Assembly: GCA_963734895.1 (NCBI GenBank)
Contig: CAVTIN010000004.1
Location: forward strand, 360,889 to 424,888
Direction of reading: 5' to 3'
DNA: 64,000 bases
Source of the DNA: an uncultured Chloroflexia bacterium
GTDB taxonomy: Bacteria; Chloroflexota; Limnocylindria; Limnocylindrales; CSP1-4
A program made the translations under genes and the position numbers. A model generated the notes under the pieces. That model was not told the DNA's origin. It did not search any database and worked only from the letters and a program-made list of their open reading frames with translations. Shown one piece after another: positions 43,544 to 64,000 of this stretch (position 1 is its first letter; each line of letters begins with the position of its first letter).

Positions 43544-45931
<2,388 letters not shown>

Positions 45932-51063: not shown

Positions 51064-54000
51064 ATGGAGATCCGGATCCTCGGCTCCCTCGAGGTCGTCG
51101 AGGGGGGTCTGGTCAGCGCGATCGCGTCCCGGCGTCAGCGTGCCCTGCTCGCACTCCTGCTCGTCCATGCCGGTCGGCCCGTCTCGACCGAGCATATCCT
51201 CGACGCGCTGTGGGGCGATTCGCCGCCGGAGAGCGGTTCTGGCAGCGTCGCGTTCCATGTGTCGCGCCTCAGGGCAGCGCTGGAACCCGGGCCACGCGAC
51301 GAACCCGGAACCGCCAACGGCCGGGGCCCGATCACGACCGAGGCCGGCGGCTACGCCCTGCGGATCGAGCCCGACGCGATCGACGCGGTCCGGTTCGAGC
51401 GCCTGGCGAGGGAGGGTCACGAGCTCCTCGCCGATGAACCCGCCGTGGCCGCATCGCGGCTTCGCGACGCCCTGGCCCTGTGGCGCGGCGAGCCCTTCGA
51501 GGGCCTCACGGACGAAGCGTTCCTTCAGCCGGAGATCGCCCGCCTCCACGAGCTGCGGCTGCGTGCATTCGAGGACCGTTTCGAGGCGGACCTCTCGCTC
51601 GGTCGCGGTCGCGACATCGCGGGCGAGCTTGAGTCCCTCGTGGCCGAGGAGCCGCTGCGTGAGCACCTGCGGGCGCAGCTCATGCGCGCCCTGTACGGCG
51701 CCGGCCGCCAGGCGGACGCGTTGCGCATCTACCAGGATGGTCGACGCCTGCTTGTCGATGAGCTGGGCATCGACCCGTCCGCCGAGCTCCAGGCGCTCGA
51801 GCTGGCGATCCTGCGCCAGGACGTGACGCTCGACGTTGCGCGGCCCTCCTCCGGCCCGCGGAACCCGTACAAGGGCCTGCGGCCGTTCGGCGAGGCGGAC
51901 GCGGGTGACTTCTTCGGGCGTGAGCTGTTTGCAGAGCGGCTGATCGAGCGCCTCGAAGCGGTGTCGCGGGCGGGCGGTCTGCTGCTGCTCGTCGGACCCA
52001 GCGGGAGCGGGAAGTCCAGCGTCATCCGGGCCGGGCTGTTGCCGCTGCTCCGAGCGCCGGCCCCCGGCCACGAGGCATGGCGCGTCGCGGTCATGCTGCC
52101 GGGCAGCCGTCCGACGGAAGCGCTGCTGCGGGCGTTGGACACAGTCGTCACGGCCCCGCAGGGCACGGCCCCGCAGGACACGGCCCCACAGGGCACGACC
52201 CCGCAGGGCTCAGCGTCGGGGGCCGAGGGGGCGGACATCGCGGAGGCGCTCACCCGGGCGGCCGCCGCTGATCCGCGCCGACTGCTCCTGGTCATCGACC
52301 AGCTCGAGGAGCTGTTCGCGCTTGCGACCGATCCGGGCGAACCGTCCGGATTCCTCCGCAGCATCGCCGCCGCACTGACCGGGCCCCCGCCACGCCCGGC
52401 CGTTGTCGCATCGTTGCGAGCCGACTGGTTCGATCGGCCGTTGCTCAGCGCGGAGCTCGGGGCGCTCGTTCGGGATGCCGTCGAGGTCGTGACCCCGCTG
52501 ACCCGCGACGAGCTCGAGCGGGCCATCGTGCGGCCGGCCACCGCGGTCGGTGTCGAGCTCGAGCCTGGCCTGGCGGCAGACCTCGAGGCCGACGTGGCCG
52601 ACCGGCCCGGGGCGCTCCCGCTCCTGCAGTTCGCCCTGACCGAGCTGTTCGAGCGGGCCGAAGGCAAGCGGCTCAGTCGAGAGTCCTACGCGGCCATTGG
52701 CGGCGTGGCCGGTGCGGTTGGCCGGCGGGCGGAGACGGTCTTCGCATCACTCGACCAGCCGGCGCGCGACCTCGCCCGCCAGCTGTTCCTGCGGATGACT
52801 GCCGTGGGCGAAGGGCGGACCGTGGCTGCCCGACGGGTCGTGGTGGACGACCTGCGCTCGATCGAGGCGACAGCCGAGCGTGTCGACGCCGTGCTCGAAG
52901 CCTTCGGACGATGGCGATTGCTGGCCTTCGACCGTGATCCGCGCTCGGGCCGGGCGACCGTCGAGCCGGCACACGAAGCGCTGCTCACGCACTGGCCGCG
53001 ACTCGCCGGCTGGATCCAGGAGGCAGAGGAGGCGCTCTGGATGCAGGCGCGGCTGAGCGCCACGGCCACCGAATGGGAAGCAACGGACCGGGACCCTGGG
53101 TTCCTCCTGGCCGGCAGCCGCCTCGACCTGTTCGAGACATGGAGCGCCACCACCGACATCCGCCTCGACGCGCTCGAGCGCGAGCTGCTCGAGGCGAGCC
53201 TGGTCGAGCGCCGGCGGGCCGAGCAGGCCGAGCGCGATCGCCGCGATCAGGAGCGCCGGCTCGAACGCCGGGCGTCGACGAGGCTTCGGGCGCTCGTGGC
53301 CGTGCTCCTTGCAGGCGTGATCGGGGTCTCGGGGCTGCTCGCCGTCGTCTGGCGCCAGGGGGAGGGCGCCCGCGAGGATCGGGCGATCGCCATGGCGCGC
53401 GAGTTGGCGGTGGCCGCGAACGGGCGCCTCGACACCGATCCGACGCTGGCCCTGCTTCTGGCCGCCGAGGCGGCGCGGGCGACGGCCGACCGGGGGTGGA
53501 TCACGGAGGAGGCGCTCGATGCGCTGCACTGGGCTGTTCAACGGGCGCGGGTCCCGTACCCGTCGGGCGACGTCCCCGTTGCGGTGCGACTCGCGCCGCC
53601 CCCCATCGGTGCCCGCGGCGTCTATCTGCTGCCGGCCCGCGACCTGATCGAGCTCGCCGACACCTCCGCTGGGCGGTCGCTCACCGCTGACGAATGCCGA
53701 ACTTACCTGCACCAGCCGGCCTGTCCGGCGGCGGATCGACGCCAGGTGGACGCGAATCTCGGGGTCATGACCGCCACGGGCGAGGTGGCGATGACCGATC
53801 TCGCGGCGCAGGGCAGCGGAGGTGTGAGCCTGCGGGTCGTCTCGCAGCTGCCCGCCGATCTGGCCGCTGCGCTGACCGACTATGCGGCCCAGGGCGGTGC
53901 CATCTCCTTCACGGATGACGACGGCACCGGCGATCCTCCAGCCCTGGTCGAGCAGGCTGACGTCGCCATCCTTGCTCGCCCAGGCGACGTCACTGACCTG

Positions 54001-55026
54001 GCCCGTGCGGGCCTGCTGCTGTCGCTGGACGAGGTCCTGTCGCCGGCCGACCTCGCAGCGCTCGAGGCGGGACCGCTGGCCGATCTCGGCCGGGTCCAGC
54101 CGTTGGACGCCGCGGGCGCGCGCCTCGTCGGTGCCCCGATCGCGGCGACGGCCTCCGGTCTGCTGTGGTACCCGGCCGACGCCTTCGCCGTTGCGGGCTA
54201 CGAGCCACCGGCCACCTGGGAGGCACTGGAGCAGCTCGTCGAGCGGATGATCCAGGATGGTCGCACGCCGTGGTGTCTCGGCCTGCTTGGGGGTGAGCAC
54301 GATGGGGCCTACGGCGCCGACCTGGTCGAGGACCTGGCCGCCGATCTACTGACCGCGCCCGGCTTTGACGCCTGGGCGGCTGGACGAACCGGTTTCAGCC
54401 TTGCCATCGAGGCTGCGTTTCGCCGCTATCACGCGCTGATCCAGCAGACTGGCGCCGTCCTCGGCGGCCCCGAGACGGCCATTCGAACGCCGGCGGCGTG
54501 GGCGGCACTCCAGATGGGCCGAGGCGAGCTGCCGGAGTGCTGGCTGATCCACGCGAGCGGCGATCAGCGGGCGACCTGGGAACAGGGCATTCGTGAGGAC
54601 CTCACTCCGGTCCGCCTTCCGGTCCGCGCCGAAGGAGCGACCGTGCTGCGTGGGCGTGTGTACACGCTCGTCGTGCTTCGTGACCGGCCCGAGGTCAGGA
54701 CCTTCGTGCAGTACCTGCTCGGCACGGACTTCGCGGGCCGGCTGATCAGCGAGGATTCGGGAAGCGGGCTGGTCCCGCTCGCGTCCCCGGGTGCGGGGGC
54801 GACACGAACCGCTACCGAGCGGGACATGGCCGGCCTCGTGGAATTGGCGCTGGCGGCAGGCACCTTCCTGGTTGACGCGTCCGACCGGATGCCGCGGACA
54901 CTCGGCGTCATCGCGTTCCCGGACTCGGCCATGCGCGTCGCCGGGATCCCGGCAGGCTCCCCGGAGGCCGCCATCGCCGGTGAGCTCGACCTGCTGGAAC
55001 GGATCCGTCTCGAGGCCCTTCCTTGA
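51064..55026 (+). CDS. BTAD/SARP-type winged-helix regulator fused to a STAND P-loop NTPase, one TM helix and an extracytoplasmic solute-binding-protein-like domain
   Basis: 1320 aa:
- N-terminal MEIRILGSLEV..RRQRALLALLLVH..VSTEHILDALWGD (OmpR/SARP wHTH)
- BTAD (ALALWRGEPFEGL..LRAQLMRALYGAGRQADALRIYQ)
- NPYKGLRPFGEADAGDFFGRE..LVGPSGSGKSS (Walker A)
- TM LRALVAVLLAGVIGVSGLLAVVW
- a C-terminal region resembling ABC sugar-binding proteins. Confidence 0.8.
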   Translation: MEIRILGSLEVVEGGLVSAIASRRQRALLALLLVHAGRPVSTEHILDALWGDSPPESGSGSVAFHVSRLRAALEPGPRDEPGTANGRGPITTEAGGYALRIEPDAIDAVRFERLAREGHELLADEPAVAASRLRDALALWRGEPFEGLTDEAFLQPEIARLHELRLRAFEDRFEADLSLGRGRDIAGELESLVAEEPLREHLRAQLMRALYGAGRQADALRIYQDGRRLLVDELGIDPSAELQALELAILRQDVTLDVARPSSGPRNPYKGLRPFGEADAGDFFGRELFAERLIERLEAVSRAGGLLLLVGPSGSGKSSVIRAGLLPLLRAPAPGHEAWRVAVMLPGSRPTEALLRALDTVVTAPQGTAPQDTAPQGTTPQGSASGAEGADIAEALTRAAAADPRRLLLVIDQLEELFALATDPGEPSGFLRSIAAALTGPPPRPAVVASLRADWFDRPLLSAELGALVRDAVEVVTPLTRDELERAIVRPATAVGVELEPGLAADLEADVADRPGALPLLQFALTELFERAEGKRLSRESYAAIGGVAGAVGRRAETVFASLDQPARDLARQLFLRMTAVGEGRTVAARRVVVDDLRSIEATAERVDAVLEAFGRWRLLAFDRDPRSGRATVEPAHEALLTHWPRLAGWIQEAEEALWMQARLSATATEWEATDRDPGFLLAGSRLDLFETWSATTDIRLDALERELLEASLVERRRAEQAERDRRDQERRLERRASTRLRALVAVLLAGVIGVSGLLAVVWRQGEGAREDRAIAMARELAVAANGRLDTDPTLALLLAAEAARATADRGWITEEALDALHWAVQRARVPYPSGDVPVAVRLAPPPIGARGVYLLPARDLIELADTSAGRSLTADECRTYLHQPACPAADRRQVDANLGVMTATGEVAMTDLAAQGSGGVSLRVVSQLPADLAAALTDYAAQGGAISFTDDDGTGDPPALVEQADVAILARPGDVTDLARAGLLLSLDEVLSPADLAALEAGPLADLGRVQPLDAAGARLVGAPIAATASGLLWYPADAFAVAGYEPPATWEALEQLVERMIQDGRTPWCLGLLGGEHDGAYGADLVEDLAADLLTAPGFDAWAAGRTGFSLAIEAAFRRYHALIQQTGAVLGGPETAIRTPAAWAALQMGRGELPECWLIHASGDQRATWEQGIREDLTPVRLPVRAEGATVLRGRVYTLVVLRDRPEVRTFVQYLLGTDFAGRLISEDSGSGLVPLASPGAGATRTATERDMAGLVELALAAGTFLVDASDRMPRTLGVIAFPDSAMRVAGIPAGSPEAAIAGELDLLERIRLEALP
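52150..52209 (+). repeat. 15-nt (APQGT) imperfect tandem repeat x4 inside the STAND gene
   Basis: acggccccgcagggc / acggccccgcaggac / acggccccacagggc / acgaccccgcagggc. Confidence 0.85.
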
Positions 55027-59295: not shown

Positions 59296-61718
59296 CTACT
59301 CGAGGTAGCTAGTAGCACGATCGACTTTACCTCGCCGCGACCTCGACTGCGTAGGCCAAGGCCCGGGACCCCGGCCGTCCTGCGGCCGCCCGAAGAGGTA
59401 GCCCTGGCCGTAGGCGATCCCGATCGAGCGAGCATCTCGAGCTCGGCAGTGGTCTCGATGCCTTCGGCGATCAGCTGAAGGCTTCGCTCCGCCGGCGAAG
59501 TAGCCTGACCCCTGCGATGAGCGCCTGCCGAGCGGGATCGGTGTCGATGCCCCGGATGAGCCCGATGTCGAGCTTCACGAAGTAGGGTGCAGAGCTCCAG
59601 GATGTGGCGAAGGCTCGCATGCCGGCACCGGCATCGTCGACCGCCAGCCGGACGCTCGGCCCGAGTCGCCGCGAGCTCCCGGCGAAGCGCCGGGTAGTCG
59701 TCAATGACGACGTGCTCGGTGATCTCGAGGACGAGTGGTCGCACCTGCTCCGCCAAGGATCGTCCGGAGCATGCCCGATCGGATGAGCGACGGAGAGACG
59801 TTCAGGCTGAGGTACGCCTCGGGTGGCAGGGCTGTCGCCGCCTCGAGGGCGGCATGGAGCGTGGCTGCCTCGAGCTAGAGACCGAGACCGGACCGGGCGG
59901 CGAGAGCGAACGTGACGTCGGGCGGGACGCCGCTCGAGAAGCGCTGAGGGCCTCGTAGCCGACCACCTCCCCGGTGTGGAGCGTCCACGATCGGCTGGAA
60001 GAACGGGTGAAGGCGGCTGCGTCGAGGATCGCCTGGATGCTCGCCCGCGCGGCTTCATCCCGGTAGCGAGCCTCGAGCCCACCGGAAAGCAGAGTCCCGA
60101 GGATCGAGGCGAGCGTCGCAGCACGGGCAGCTCGCCAAACCCATCCTCGACTTGATCGTGGATCCCGAATCCGACCACCCCGATCACGCCGTGGGCCCCC
60201 GCAGTGGCGCGTAGGCCACGGTACGCAGCCCGGTGCCGATGACCTGCTCGCCGTAGGTGCCATCCTGGCGCCGGCACGCCACTCTTCCGTACAGGCGCCG
60301 ACCGACGCGCGCTCGAACAGGTAGCGGCGCGTTTGGCCGGGATCACACGGTTCGACGTGAAGGCGGCCGCGACGAGCCCCTCGACGGCCAGGATGAGCCC
60401 CTGGTCCCCGCCGTCAGCGCGATCACGAAGGCCGACTCGATGTTCGGAAGACCGATCATCTCGGCGCAGGCGTTCGCCGCGATGGTCTCGGGCGAGGCGC
60501 TCGAGTAGATCCGCTTGAGGGCTGTCTCGATCAGCCGCGCTCGCGGGTGCGTCGCGCAATCTCGCTCTCGAGAGCGCGCTCACGGGTGACGTCACGGTCG
60601 GTCTGCATGAAGCCGACCAGGCGGTCGGAAGCATCACGGATCGGGGAGATGACGGCCTCGAGCTCGAGGAGGTACCCGTCCTTGGCGCGATTGATGAGCG
60701 GGCCGCTCCACGTCTGGCCCGTTGCCGCCGCAGCCCAGATCGCATCGAAGAAGGCATGGTCGTGGCGACCGCTGGCGATGATGCTCGGCGTGACGCCCGA
60801 CGATCTCTTCCCTTCGTAGCCGTAGATGCGGCTGAACGACCGATTGACGTACGTGACCGTACCGTCGAGGCCGTGAGATCCACACGGCATCGGCGGTCTG
60901 CTCCACAGCGGCGGCGAGCTGCGCCCGCTCCGCCTCCGCAGCCACGCGTTCGGTGATGTCCTGGACCGTCCCGACGACTCTGACCGGGGCCCCGTCGCCA
61001 TCGCGGATCACCGTCGCCTCGTCGTGGACGATCCGGATGCTGCCATCGGGTCGGAGCACCCGGTACTCGAGCACGCGCGCTCCATCGTCGGCCACTGCCG
61101 CCCACCGCCCTGCCTGGACGCGCGCCCGATCATCGGGATGAACGAACGCGAGAAATGCCTCGGGCGTCCCGGGGATCGAGCCTGGCTCAACCCCGTAGAT
61201 CCGATGGAGCTCATCGGATCGCACGCCCGCGGCTGCCGCGACGTCCCACTCCCAGCTGCCGATGTGCGCGAGCCGCTGCGCCTCGGCGAGATTGCGCTCG
61301 CTCGCGCGGAGTTCGTCGATCAGCCGTGACCGCTCGTGCTCCGAGGCCTGCCGCAGGCTGATGTCGCGGATCGCGCCGTGACGAGGATCCCATCGGCGCT
61401 CTCGGCGGGCTCAGCATGATCTCGATCGGGAACTCCGTGCCGTCCTTGCGCCGGCCGTGAGCTCGATGCCCGTGCCGATCACCTGGTCGAGCGCGACTTC
61501 CGCCGCGGCGCAGGTCGCCCGCGACGAGCCGCTCGGCGAACGGCCCTCGGGGATGATGTTCGTGATGGGCTGTCCGAGGAGCTCATCGCGGTGGTAGCCG
61601 AACTGCTTCTCCGCCTGTGCGTTCAGCAGGACGATCCGCCGGCCTGGTCGACCGCGACCATCGCGTCCGGGGCCGCCTCGATCAAGCCGCGGTACTTCGC
61701 CCCCGACTCGTCAACCAC
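59296..61718 (-). pseudogene. decayed multi-PAS / EAL signalling gene
   Basis: Recognisable PAS pieces (IEAAPDAMVAVDQAG, RKDGTEFPIEIMLSP, AHIGSWEWD..RSDELHRIYG, HGLDGTVTYVNRSFSRIYGY) and EAL pieces (VVGYEALS, LVLEITEH, LAVDDAGAG, FVKLDIGLIRGI, IAEGIETTAELEML, GQGYLFGRP) are scattered over all three reverse frames. I count at least eight frame changes or stops. Confidence 0.75.
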
Positions 61719-61941
61719 CGGTTCCGTGGGTCATTCAGCACGGACTACCTCGTCTCCCCGTCGCTGTGACCGAGGCCTTACCTGCCGCTGTTCGGCGGAC
61801 GTCCCTTCTGACGTGACGCGCTGATCGCCTCGTGCGAGGCTCCTGAACACGACGGACACGCCGAATCCGCGACTTGTCACGCTGTCCGTGCGCCGCCGCT
61901 GCTGTCATTACGCGCCTCATGCTCCGCCGAGTGATGCGCCG

Positions 61942-63264
61942 CTAGCCGGCCCTGAGTGCCTCGCGCATCAGCTCGAAGGCGCGCTCGTGCTCGCCGACGG
62001 CCGCCAGTGCCTCCGCGAGCTCGCCCAGCACCTGCCGGGTCTTCGCCGGCTTGCCCTCGTGCCGCGCCAGGTGGGCCGCGCGCTCGTACAGCACCAGCGC
62101 CTCGCTGCCCGAGCCCTGGGCCCGGCGGGCGCGCGCCAGCGTCAGCACGGCGGCCAGCGCTGCAACGTCGTTCGACATCTCCTCGGCGAGCGCCAGCGCC
62201 CGGGACGCGAGCTCCGCCGCCCCGTCCGGGTCACCCTGGGCGAGCTTGATCTGCGCATCCGTGTCGGCCACGTACGACAGCCACAGCCGGTCGCCGAGAC
62301 GCTCGAAGAACCGTCGCGCCGCGTCGGCGGCCTCGGCCGCCTTGGTGCTGTTCCCGAGCGCGAGATAGGACAGGGCGAGATCCCGCTGGAGCGACGCCGC
62401 CTCGAACTCGGCCTGCGCGGCCCGCAGCAGTGCCAGCCCCGCGGTGCCGGCGCGGATCGCGGCCTCGAAGTCCCCGGTGTGCCGGTAGCTGAAGGCGAGG
62501 TCGAACAGGTAGACGCCCCGTCGACGGTCATCGAGCCCTTCGCTGAGGCCCCGGATCTCCTCCAGATAGGCGAGCGCGATGGCGTGCTCGCCGTCGAGCG
62601 ACGCGTTGCTCGAGAGCGCCATTAGCACCCGCGCCTGGAAGTCCGGCTCCACCCGAAGTCCAGCCCGCAGCCTGGCCAGGATCGCGTCCAGGAGCGCCCG
62701 GGCCTCGACCGTGTTGCCCTGCTCATATTGCCCGCACGACAGCCAGTAGGTAGCCAGCGCTTCCTCCGCGCCGCGTCCCAGGCTCGCGAACAGGCGCGCC
62801 GCCTCCGCTGCGGCACCGACGGCGTCCTTGCCGCGATCGAGTCCGGCAAATCCCTCGGCGAGCCCGAGCAGCAGCTCCGCCCGGGATCCCGTGCCCGAAG
62901 GCAATTCCAGCAGGGCCTGATAGGCATCCACCGCTTCCTGCCAGTGGCCGGCGGCAAGCTCGAGATCCGCCTGGAGCCTCGTCCACTGCTCGACCCTGTC
63001 CTCGAGAAATCGACTGGTCGGCAGACCGAGCCGCTCGGCGATGAAGCTGAGGGCCGCCATCGACGGCTTGCTGTGGCCGTTCTCCAGCGCGCTCACGTAG
63101 GCCTTCGTGTACCGGCCGGCCGCGAGCTGCTGCTGCGTCAGGCCCGCCGCGAGCCTAGCCGTGCGGATTCGGGAACCGATGGTCTGGGCGAGCAGGCGCT
63201 GGTCGGGGCGCGATCTGGCGGTTTGCTGACGGCTCATCAACCGAAGTGTACGACCCAGGGTCAT
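61942..63264 (-). CDS. XRE-family HTH transcriptional regulator with a long TPR-like C-terminal domain
   Basis: 440 aa. The HTH is IGSRIRTARLAAGLTQQQLAAGRYTKAYVSALENGHSKPSMAALSFIAERLG. About 350 aa of Ala/Leu-rich helical repeats follow (..AEALATYWLSCGQYEQGN.., ..ALSYLALGNSTKAAEA..). Confidence 0.8.
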   Translation of the reverse strand: MTLGRTLRLMSRQQTARSRPDQRLLAQTIGSRIRTARLAAGLTQQQLAAGRYTKAYVSALENGHSKPSMAALSFIAERLGLPTSRFLEDRVEQWTRLQADLELAAGHWQEAVDAYQALLELPSGTGSRAELLLGLAEGFAGLDRGKDAVGAAAEAARLFASLGRGAEEALATYWLSCGQYEQGNTVEARALLDAILARLRAGLRVEPDFQARVLMALSSNASLDGEHAIALAYLEEIRGLSEGLDDRRRGVYLFDLAFSYRHTGDFEAAIRAGTAGLALLRAAQAEFEAASLQRDLALSYLALGNSTKAAEAADAARRFFERLGDRLWLSYVADTDAQIKLAQGDPDGAAELASRALALAEEMSNDVAALAAVLTLARARRAQGSGSEALVLYERAAHLARHEGKPAKTRQVLGELAEALAAVGEHERAFELMREALRAG

Positions 63265-63517
63265 TCATGGTTATCCCGTCGATCAACTCCCCGACGGTCA
63301 CGCCGAGGCGCTGCGAGAACAGCCACAACGTGCCCAGCGACGGCATCGTCGTGCCGCTCTCGAGCGCGGACACGTAGCTCCTGGACAGCGGTTGGCCAAG
63401 CTGACCCTGGGTCAGGCCCCGTCTTCGTCGTTGTTCACGCACCCTCCGGCCCAGCTCGATGGCCGTCGGGGATCCGGGGCCCCATCCGAAATGTTTAGCA
63501 ATACTTGACTTACCCAC
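63155..63517 (-). CDS. small XRE-family HTH protein
   Basis: GTG start with HTH LGRRVREQRRRRGLTQGQLGQPLSRSYVSALESGTTMPSLGTLWLFSQRLG. The C-terminal ~45 codons overlap the start of the 440-aa gene and may not all be translated as drawn. Confidence 0.6.
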   Translation of the reverse strand: MGKSSIAKHFGWGPGSPTAIELGRRVREQRRRRGLTQGQLGQPLSRSYVSALESGTTMPSLGTLWLFSQRLGVTVGELIDGITMNDPGSYTSVDEPSANRQIAPRPAPARPDHRFPNPHG

Positions 63518-63534
63518 GGTTCGAAGACTAGCAT
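63505..63534 (+). promoter_or_regulatory. sigma70-like promoter TTGACT-N18-TAGCAT facing the small peptide ORF
   Basis: Hexamers lie at 63505-63510 and 63529-63534 in a locally AT-rich patch. The spacer contains the GTG start (63517) of the divergent XRE gene. Confidence 0.45.
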
Positions 63535-63601
63535 CGCGGTCGATCGTCGGCTTCCGGCGGTTCCCCGGGTCATAGGCGAGCGCCAGCTATTGGAGATTGC
63601 T

Positions 63602-63715
63602 GTGCTTGCTCGCCCCAACCGCATCCGCCCCTTCGTGGTCTCCCTGGTCTCTGCCGGGATCGCCGCCCTCGTCAGCGCAGCCGCCGCACTCGCTCAGACA
63701 CCGTATCCGCACTGA
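63602..63715 (+). CDS. 37-codon ORF: signal-peptide-like sequence followed by C-terminal QTPYPH
   Basis: GTG at 63602 is preceded by GGAG at a 6-nt spacing; a TTG at 63590 is also in frame. The translation is MLARPNRIRPFVVSLVSAGIAALVSAAAALAQTPYPH, with TGA at 63713-63715. The ORF is too short for the supplied track. Confidence 0.4.
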   Translation: MLARPNRIRPFVVSLVSAGIAALVSAAAALAQTPYPH

Positions 63716-63729
63716 ACCTCACCCCGCCT

Positions 63730-63746
63730 GAGCGTCACTGACGCTC
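63730..63746 (+). terminator. perfect 7-bp hairpin just after the small ORF
   Basis: GAGCGTC-ACT-GACGCTC. No U-tract follows, so intrinsic-terminator status is uncertain. Confidence 0.3.
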
Positions 63747-63835
63747 GCTCCGCCATTCGAGTCGTTGCTCGCCTGCGACCCGGGAACAGCATCGGACAGC
63801 GCGGTACACTATGAGTAAACTCCAGCCATTGCCGG

Positions 63836-63871
63836 GGACGGTGGCCCGAATTCGAGGGGAGGCCACCGTCC
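63836..63871. other. strong 11-bp perfect stem-loop
   Basis: GGACGGTGGCC - 14 nt loop - GGCCACCGTCC. Confidence 0.5.
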
Positions 63872-64000
63872 CACCCTCCTTGCGCCTCAAGGCGTCGGTC
63901 GACTGTCTGGGTTCGGGCGTCAGGCACGCGTCGTGCTGTGGCGCTCCAGCGCTACGGGATCCTGCTCGCCGACAATAAATCAGCGTGGTAGATCACCGGT

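Follow-up and report, generated by a model that had tools for sequence, protein, structure and literature searches.

The 64,000-nucleotide (nt) stretch of uncultured Chloroflexia DNA analyzed here, referred to throughout as the window, contains toward its right-hand end a small cassette in which a gene for a regulator combining a helix-turn-helix (HTH) with tetratricopeptide repeats (TPRs) stands beside a divergent short open reading frame (ORF) whose product resembles an exported pre-peptide, with a second, small XRE-type HTH gene between them. A sequence-only reading of this DNA had proposed that these parts form a peptide-receptor module of the RRNPP or arbitrium type; all of the elements it described are present where it placed them, with two details corrected. 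The regulator, our candidate peptide receptor, is encoded on the minus strand at 61942-63237 and has 431 amino acids counted from its second Met; an alternative upstream ATG at 63264 gives a 440-residue version, and public gene calls start at 63237. The earlier assignment of an HTH and TPRs to 61942-63264 on the minus strand is borne out by Pfam matches to HTH_3 (residues 33-84 of the 440-residue ORF, E 8e-10) and TPR_12 (E 4.5e-13). The second XRE protein that had been listed, 120 residues from a GTG start at 63155-63517 on the minus strand, likewise matches HTH_3 (E 1.7e-10), and its gene shares 83 nt with the 5' end of the receptor gene. On the plus strand, direct reading of the sequence agrees with the description of a divergent 37-codon ORF at 63602-63715, running from a GTG start at 63602 to a TGA stop at 63713-63715, encoding MLARPNRIRPFVVSLVSAGIAALVSAAAALAQTPYPH and preceded by a Shine-Dalgarno GGAG (63592-63595) 6 nt 5' of the start. 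Its promoter, a sigma-70-type TTGACT-18-TAGCAT at 63505-63534 on the plus strand, leaves a leader of roughly 60 nt. This promoter had been rated highly, set in an AT-rich patch and interlocked with the small XRE gene, and each of these points holds: the promoter scan found it as the sole sigma-70-like match in the 2.5 kb of 61500-64000, where shuffled sequences average 0.1 matches, GC content around 63400-63599 falls to 0.625, the window as a whole having about 0.70, and the small XRE start codon (63517-63515) lies inside the promoter spacer.

The small ORF was compared across a synteny set of 83 related loci whose receptors are 52 to 100% identical to that of the window; one locus is cut by a contig end, leaving 82 assessable. 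The genome loci are the best 80 of 425 receptor relatives found in a scan of one genome per species. All 80 derive from metagenome-assembled genomes, and about 74 are titled Chloroflexota, Chloroflexi, Chloroflexia, Limnocylindria or Anaerolineae; three titled Steroidobacteraceae and one titled Sulfomarinibacteraceae are probably mis-assigned bins. Long-read "MFD" bins make up many of the related genomes. In 77 of the 82 assessable loci the receptor gene has a homologous divergent small ORF beside it. Conservation in syntenic relatives, a check that the sequence-only reading had suggested, was thereby found, in a long form of 37-43 residues that carries the signal peptide (69/83 loci, with a profile built from the first matches) and in a 12-residue form that replaces it in eight of the 83. 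The long ORF is always divergent, with its start codon 160-460 nt upstream of that of the receptor. Start codons are mostly ATG among the orthologs, and AAGGAG or GGAG stands 5-9 nt before the start codon in nearly all of 67 of them. Frame and length are kept despite nucleotide divergence above 50%, GC content by codon position follows the order GC3 (0.77), GC1 (0.66), GC2 (0.57), and the ratio of nonsynonymous to synonymous change (pN/pS) is 0.55-0.9, as would be expected of a signal peptide constrained chiefly in its hydrophobicity.

Public protein sets hold the peptide family as 261 clusters at 90% identity, all of them labeled "hypothetical" and none with a Pfam domain. One exact 40-residue peptide, P0138, appears in 185 indexed blocks of the collection and is divergent to a called 431-residue HTH-TPR gene in every distinct neighborhood (3 shown, 21 similar ones collapsed); another, P0204, occurs on four contigs of 1.0-1.7 kb on which the divergent neighbor runs into the contig end and is assigned to no family. 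The small ORF turns up in dozens of diverged genomes together with its frame, Shine-Dalgarno site and promoter, which takes it beyond chance, and by these comparisons it is a real conserved gene. That it encodes a type I toxin-like hydrophobic peptide, or is a chance ORF after all, is hardly credible: its size and hydrophobicity do recall type I toxins and such ORFs are frequent in GC-rich DNA, but frame, Shine-Dalgarno site, cleavage motif and tail are kept over at least 69 loci and 261 clusters, the hydrophobic part is dispensable in one clade, and there is no mobile-element association. No second receptor or peptide gene was found elsewhere in the window.

The first 31 residues of the product form a predicted Sec signal peptide (63602-63694, plus strand), with an n-region MLARPNRIRP of charge +3, a hydrophobic core and a c-region SAAAALA that ends in A-L-A. 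Cleavage there would separate MLARPNRIRPFVVSLVSAGIAALVSAAAALA from QTPYPH, the predicted mature peptide, which together with the stop codon occupies 63695-63715 on the plus strand and is delimited by the conservation of the tail. In a separate 18-peptide alignment used as an invariance check, the Ala at -1 of the proposed site is the sole invariant column. The remaining statistics come from 177 unique peptides, of which 172 have A or G at -1 (A in 134, G in 38) and 157 have V or A at -3; Pro or Ser is often found at about -7, and the n-region contains about three K/R residues on average. Tails are 5-11 residues long with a mode of 9, and the 121 distinct tails all share a fixed scaffold, [DG]GGx[TGP]x[FYWIL]P[HRK], which the clade of the window has shortened to QTPY[PSA]H. 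The hexapeptide proposed earlier, QTPYPH, represents a clade-specific shortening of a tail that usually has nine residues, and the variable C-terminus looked for beside the regulator in relatives proved to be variation on a fixed scaffold.

This pattern points to a Gram-positive-type Sec and signal peptidase I substrate whose mature product would be the tail. Other export and maturation classes were considered and rejected. A Tat signal fails since the twin-arginine motif is inconsistent among the peptides, a lipoprotein since Cys is absent, and a prepilin signal since the G/F...E5 motif is absent. The hydrophobic leader is unlike the LSxxELxxIxGG type of double-glycine leaders, and a ribosomally synthesized and post-translationally modified peptide (RiPP) precursor was dropped since modifying enzymes are not conserved nearby and the HaaT-TPR NCBIfam match reached 36 bits against a cut-off of 1125. 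The product could instead remain uncleaved as a single-pass membrane microprotein (N-in/C-out) that modulates, for example, a transporter, sensor or protease, and a hydrophobic stretch of about 20 residues can indeed span a membrane; a few members also carry the Joint Genome Institute (JGI) automatic annotation "cytochrome oxidase subunit 4", a label of tiny hydrophobic proteins. We consider such an anchor improbable. The invariant Ala at -1 together with V or A at -3 favors cleavage, and with the helix breakers upstream makes up a signal peptidase I substrate signature; moreover, the core drifts freely with selection falling on the tail, and the 12-residue forms have no hydrophobic segment at all.

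These 12-residue forms occur in the eight loci without a long ORF (L045, L048, L053, L055, L061, L062, L065, and L079), which carry at the position of the long ORF a 12-codon ORF, MRSAHTGGGWPS (MRTASCGGGWPV in L062), preceded by a GAGGGAG Shine-Dalgarno site and the same kind of promoter dyad as described below for the long-ORF loci. In the seven closest of them, whose receptors are 86-96% identical, the 12-codon ORF retains 94.6% nucleotide identity against 40-60% in the flanks, and five of its eight codon differences are synonymous. The surrounding clades have peptides ending in ...SGGGSWPL or ...VTGGGDFPR, and this one branches from within them, so the loss of the signal peptide is derived, and the GGGWP core is kept in the signal-less ORFs. 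Because this clade dropped the signal peptide and kept the tail ORF, the tail is the selected part. The tail would thus appear to retain its value without Sec export and to be able to act inside the cell, as anticipated for a target that is itself cytoplasmic and encoded next door. More broadly, the comparisons show selection on the ORF frame, the signal-peptide features and the C-terminal tail across Limnocylindria-type Chloroflexota. As separate observations on these leaders, an element GGTACCGATGGGTSATTG is conserved in the small-ORF 5' leader of distant clades (in seven of the 12-residue loci, namely L045, L048, L053, L055, L061, L065, and L079, and also in L052, L056, L070, L071, and others), and a conserved block GCCGCGGGCGGC...CCTGTGACTCCCAGG lies 3' of the 12-codon ORF.

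The signal-less clade also bears on an explanation in which regulation runs one way only, the HTH-TPR protein (with or without the XRE protein) controlling the small gene while the secreted peptide serves its own purpose outside the cell, for instance as a surface, metal-binding, antimicrobial or morphogen peptide, and the TPRs bind some other ligand or protein. Retention of a GGGWP tail under strong constraint in a clade that has shed the export signal makes a purely extracellular role hard to reconcile with the data. Genes for processing, modification or export are not conserved nearby, and six to nine unmodified residues are short for a structural or antimicrobial function. Regulator genes do often lie divergent from their targets, and the class-wide tail scaffold is of the kind that a fixed physical function would leave, so that we regard this explanation as unlikely without thinking it far-fetched.

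A conserved imperfect dyad, GTTTAGCAATACTTGAC (GTnnAG-N5-CTTGAC), lies across the peptide promoter at 63493-63509, with no strand assigned, and was singled out by its conservation as a candidate operator. It overlaps the peptide -35 box and codons 3-9 of the small XRE gene, and occurs once in the window, where 0 chance matches are expected. An alignment of 54 loci anchored on the -35 box gave GTT[TC]A[GC]nA[AG][TC]AC-TTGAC[TC]-N17/18-TA[GC][CG]AT, with promoter hexamers, spacing and dyad conserved in at least 54 loci. Clades further away carry GGCAAG-N5-CTTGAC in place of the standard dyad, and the eight 12-residue loci have GGCAAG-N5-YTTGAC at the same position (two were matched by a pattern search, and the others were read from the sequence). 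A dyad over the peptide promoter suits control of the peptide by the regulator, as the one-way explanation has it, and would also serve an autoregulatory circuit that includes the peptide.

Two architectures surround this element. In architecture A the peptide gene is divergent from the receptor gene with start codons 162-194 nt apart in 34 of 35 loci; in architecture B the small XRE gene stands between the two and start-to-start distances are 330-455 nt. The dyad DNA in B also encodes the N-terminus of the XRE protein, (M)GKSSIAKH, while the same element in A is non-coding, which argues that the DNA element itself is what is primarily conserved. The small XRE gene is present in 32 of 67 long-ORF loci and is an accessory of about half the family. 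At 38% identity to the receptor's HTH (E 8e-8), its product is a paralog of that domain, made from an apparently leaderless gene. The recognition helices of the two proteins are alike (RYTKAYVSALENG, invariant, in the receptor and LSRSYVSALESG in the small XRE protein), and from this likeness and the HTH identity we infer that both bind the same site. Both architectures occur in a single genome bin, SPRUCE 351, which has two cassettes (L031 and L069), one without the small XRE gene and with the tail GGGGTDFPR, the other with XRE and the tail DGGGPPFPR; A and B are thus able to exist side by side as paralogous systems, each with a different peptide.

The first receptor-side gene has a -10-like TAnnCT 6-9 nt before its start codon, which suggests that receptor-side transcripts may be leaderless. 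In the window this is TAGTCT on the opposite strand (63530-63525), 7 nt upstream of the XRE start, where it overlaps the peptide -10 box back to back and places the dyad at about +7 to +25 of the xre-receptor operon. Since the dyad thus sits on the peptide -35 box and inside the transcribed start of the xre-receptor unit, its occupancy would affect the two units oppositely. The 5' untranslated region gave no supported structure in RNAalifold, with per-sequence folds equal to those of shuffles (mean z = -0.13); hairpins there that looked compensatory by eye were dropped, as neither RNAalifold nor the shuffle tests supported them.

The receptor has more than 1372 homologs, the 120 best of which are typically 431 residues long and 55-88% identical; the named ones among these 120 belong to Chloroflexota or Candidatus Limnocylindrales. 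Both a signal peptide and a transmembrane segment are absent, and the protein is predicted to be a cytoplasmic regulator. An AlphaFold2 model built from a 60-sequence alignment (mean predicted local distance difference test, pLDDT, 91.7) places the HTH at residues 12-78 and, at residues 87-429, 18 helices that make up nine TPRs. A comparison of the fold with known structures, also proposed by the sequence-only reading, was run with Foldseek against the PDB and returned peptide-binding TPR superhelices as best matches, with PlcR-PapR and Rap-Phr among the significant ones: the top matches are LGN/Pins superhelices that bind extended peptides (E about 6e-9), followed by the PlcR-PapR-DNA complex at rank 26 (3u3w, E 4e-7, 318 columns), pLS20 Rap-Phr* at rank 36 and PlcR-PapR (2qfc) at rank 39. 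Conserved polar and aromatic residues cluster in TPR1-5 (E121, E128, Y164, W165, Y171, R203, R239, R240, Y251, and R252), and TPR6-9 retain structural residues only. The cluster would fit a conserved ligand pocket beside the HTH. In sequence, the TPR part is nearest to TPR_12, to TPR_MalT (from precomputed matches of homologs) and, weakly, to the NsdA and AfsR NCBIfam models.

Beyond the small ORF, the window was compared with L003, a 92% identical locus that served as a stand-in around and past the window's end. A 7-bp hairpin, GAGCGTC-ACT-GACGCTC (63730-63746, plus strand), follows 15 nt past the stop codon without a U-tract; its region folds no better than shuffles (z = -0.22), it is also present in L003, and it could be a weak terminator. 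A terminator scan 3' of the small ORF gave no match, and an Rfam search gave sub-threshold matches only. The perfect hairpin said to follow the stop codon does exist as a 12-bp stem, GGGACGGTGGCC-N14-GGCCACCGTCCC (63835-63872, plus strand, with arms at 63835-63846 and 63861-63872), but about 120 nt past the stop rather than directly after it. L001 and L005 do not keep its left arm, and only the right arm, GAGGGGAGGCCACCGTCC, is conserved in relatives; the hairpin is not a conserved terminator and probably belongs to the upstream region of the next gene. The arm GAGGGGAGGCCACCGTCC is also one of three non-coding blocks at 63764-63872 that are kept in L003, L001 and L005 amid variable surroundings, the others being CTGCTCGCCTGGGACCCGGGAACAGC and GGTACACTATnnGTAAACTC (the latter with two TAnACT -10-like motifs); these may make up the promoter and leader of the gene that follows or represent another regulatory site.

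That next gene encodes in L001 and L003 a protein of about 400-470 residues with a Pro/Thr-rich stretch. The end of the window (63872-64000), set against L003 2150-3360, has the same gene minus about 1.07 kb and frameshifted, running from the GAGGGGAGGCCACCGTCC block straight to the gene's 3' end, and what is left appears to be a pseudogene remnant. Because this gene has decayed while the small ORF is intact, the conserved unit consists of the peptide gene and the receptor gene. The state of the downstream region also speaks to the idea that the small ORF acts in cis as a leader or upstream ORF, its translation, for instance by stalling at xP-x-stop or at a Gly-rich end, controlling the downstream gene or an antisense transcript. 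Pro-X-stop and Gly runs do resemble some arrest or attenuation leaders, and in relatives of the window's clade a same-strand gene follows, yet we hold this to be very improbable. The next gene converges on the small ORF in 30 loci, about half, often from 40-110 nt away, and shares its strand in 33; it belongs to many unrelated families (in L086 a convergent NifU gene lies 70 nt from the small ORF); since it varies in strand and family, the small ORF is not a leader peptide. A signal peptide 6-9 residues from the stop codon could not serve as a force sensor, and in the window the downstream gene is a deleted remnant beside an intact small ORF. A Gly-codon attenuator was likewise rejected, the downstream operon being absent and the tail in the window having no Gly. 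When flanking ORFs were clustered all against all, no family reached more than 25 of the 83 loci.

The other genes of the window, which has a GC content of 70%, encode xanthine dehydrogenase, uricase, KatG, GGDEF and PAS signaling proteins, a SARP-STAND regulator and VKOR. No relatives of the cassette were found in 2.9 million viral contigs, and no copies in 72,556 plasmids. With ordinary chromosomal neighbors and no viral or plasmid relatives, the cassette is chromosomal and apparently vertically inherited. The arbitrium-like context suggested earlier was not borne out, as there is no phage link and the neighbors are chromosomal housekeeping and signaling genes. Among these neighbors, the SARP-type regulator (51064-55026, plus strand; 1320 residues) has Trans_reg_C and BTAD domains followed by an nSTAND1 NTPase. 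On the minus strand, 59470-61750 contains PAS_3/PAS_4 matches in overlapping frames at 60634-61224 and 60531-61001, with fragments to 61718, and represents either a frameshifted multi-PAS signaling gene or assembly indel errors. Synteny around the cassette is rearranged between close relatives (L001 and L002 versus the window): L001 and L002 have KatG 3 kb downstream of the receptor, as against 16 kb away in the window (43640-45931), and in L002 an EAL-domain gene follows the small ORF.

RRNPP(A) systems have been described as confined to Bacillota and their mobile elements (PMC10075063, PMC9765709, PMC12700828), and we found no literature linking RRNPP-type peptide signaling to Chloroflexota. 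At the sequence level the cassette shares with these systems a cytoplasmic TPR receptor, an N-terminal XRE HTH and an adjacent small pro-peptide gene; it departs from them in ancestry, as judged by domains and closest fold, and in its occurrence outside Bacillota and their mobile elements. The RRNPP-like character originally proposed holds for the layout and the inferred logic, but specific homology to RRNPP receptors was not found. Because family-specific homology is absent and the taxon differs, the cassette is not to be filed as a member of RRNPP, and because its TPR part is nearest to TPR_12 or MalT-type repeats of high-GC regulators, a convergent assembly is suggested.

A comparison with individual systems shows how far the likeness extends. 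NprR-NprX also pairs a receptor of about 420-430 residues, with an XRE HTH followed by nine TPRs, with an adjacent gene for a Sec pre-peptide of about 40 residues; however, nprX lies downstream of nprR in the same orientation whereas the genes here are divergent, the NprX heptapeptide needs extra proteolysis whereas signal-peptidase cleavage alone would here give the final peptide, and NprR, from another phylum, is not among the top 50 Foldseek matches. PlcR-PapR combines an HTH-TPR regulator with a C-terminal peptide ligand (a predicted one here) and a palindromic box at the peptide promoter, and PlcR is the best RRNPP match both for the model (3u3w) and for the HTH profile (2qfc). PlcR nevertheless has five TPRs in 285 residues, papR lies downstream of plcR, and the taxon is different. 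Some Rgg/SHP and ComR/XIP systems have divergent regulator and peptide genes and are active through the C-terminal 7-9 residues, SHP and ComS resemble the 12-residue ORFs described here in having no classical signal peptide, and the paralogs Rgg2 and Rgg3 share one operator, comparable to the proposed XRE-receptor pair; they differ in their repeats, which are not canonical TPR_12, in export by PptAB, in processing by Eep and in the hydrophobicity of their peptides. AimR-AimP likewise joins an HTH/TPR-like receptor to a hexapeptide from the C-terminus of a secreted pre-peptide of about 40 residues, but is phage-borne with aimP downstream of aimR, unlike the chromosomal, class-wide and vertical cassette of Chloroflexota. 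The nearest sequence relatives of the TPR part are the actinobacterial AfsR/SARP, NsdA and LAL TPR sensors, which differ in their DNA-binding or NTPase modules and are not paired with a peptide gene; all scores obtained here are far below the family cut-offs.

The interpretation that we favor, and consider somewhat probable, is that the cassette is an independently evolved, RRNPP-like peptide-receptor autoregulatory unit. Each biochemical step of the model is proposed from the genetic architecture, conservation and sequence signatures described above. The promoter would drive synthesis of the pre-peptide, which would be exported by Sec and cut after A-L-A31 to release QTPYPH, possibly with an N-terminal pyroglutamate. 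The peptide would build up outside the cell, re-enter, presumably via an oligopeptide permease, and bind the concave face of TPR1-5 in the regulator. Binding would shift the regulator's occupancy of the dyad GTTTAG-N5-CTTGAC and, through it, couple the divergent units in opposite senses, giving peptide feedback together with receptor autoregulation. The small XRE protein, which shares the recognition helix (YVSALExG) and has no sensor domain, would probably compete for the operator and set the threshold.

Several results weigh against this proposal. Five receptors (L013, L020, L036, L044, and L077) have no detectable peptide gene nearby, and no oligopeptide permease (Opp) was seen among the window genes scanned. 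The best structural matches of the receptor are generic eukaryotic TPR proteins and not RRNPP receptors. A profile search of PDB sequences matched PlcR and ComR over the HTH only (PlcR 2qfc at E 3e-7) and RapH weakly over the TPRs, and no Pfam match to RNPP_C, Rgg_C or ComR_TPR was obtained at E<=1. Mutual information between receptor and tail revealed no clear covariation, in an analysis confounded by phylogeny. A generic TPR fold and undetected covariation would both be at home in the one-way explanation discussed above. Rapid diversification and carriage on mobile elements are typical of RRNPP systems, and the receptor and tail scaffold described here are unusually conserved and single-copy for a pheromone system. 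Finally, unless it has another exporter, the signal-less clade would have to be cell-autonomous. The conserved genetic module is well supported, and a signaling role for the peptide-receptor unit is plausible.

A wider proposal, that Limnocylindria-type Chloroflexota independently evolved a class-wide, vertically inherited peptide quorum sensing built from a Sec pre-peptide trimmed in one step to a 6-9-mer, an HTH-9TPR receptor and an operator on the peptide promoter, with one lineage having become signal-less and possibly using a cell-autonomous 12-mer, strikes us as evenly balanced between right and wrong. It lends itself to simple biochemical tests, with a set of reagents that comprises unmodified predicted 6-9-mers, 121 natural tails and a 17-bp candidate operator. 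Chloroflexota are generally regarded as monoderm. If the wider proposal is true, this form of signaling would extend to a second, probably monoderm phylum, abundant in soil and lake habitats but lacking a cultured model, and the cassette would be the first RRNPP-type communication outside Bacillota, in abundant uncultured bacteria of soil and freshwater. It would also stand as a clear example of evolutionary convergence on this architecture, and the signal-less clade would offer a natural experiment on a communication system turning private.

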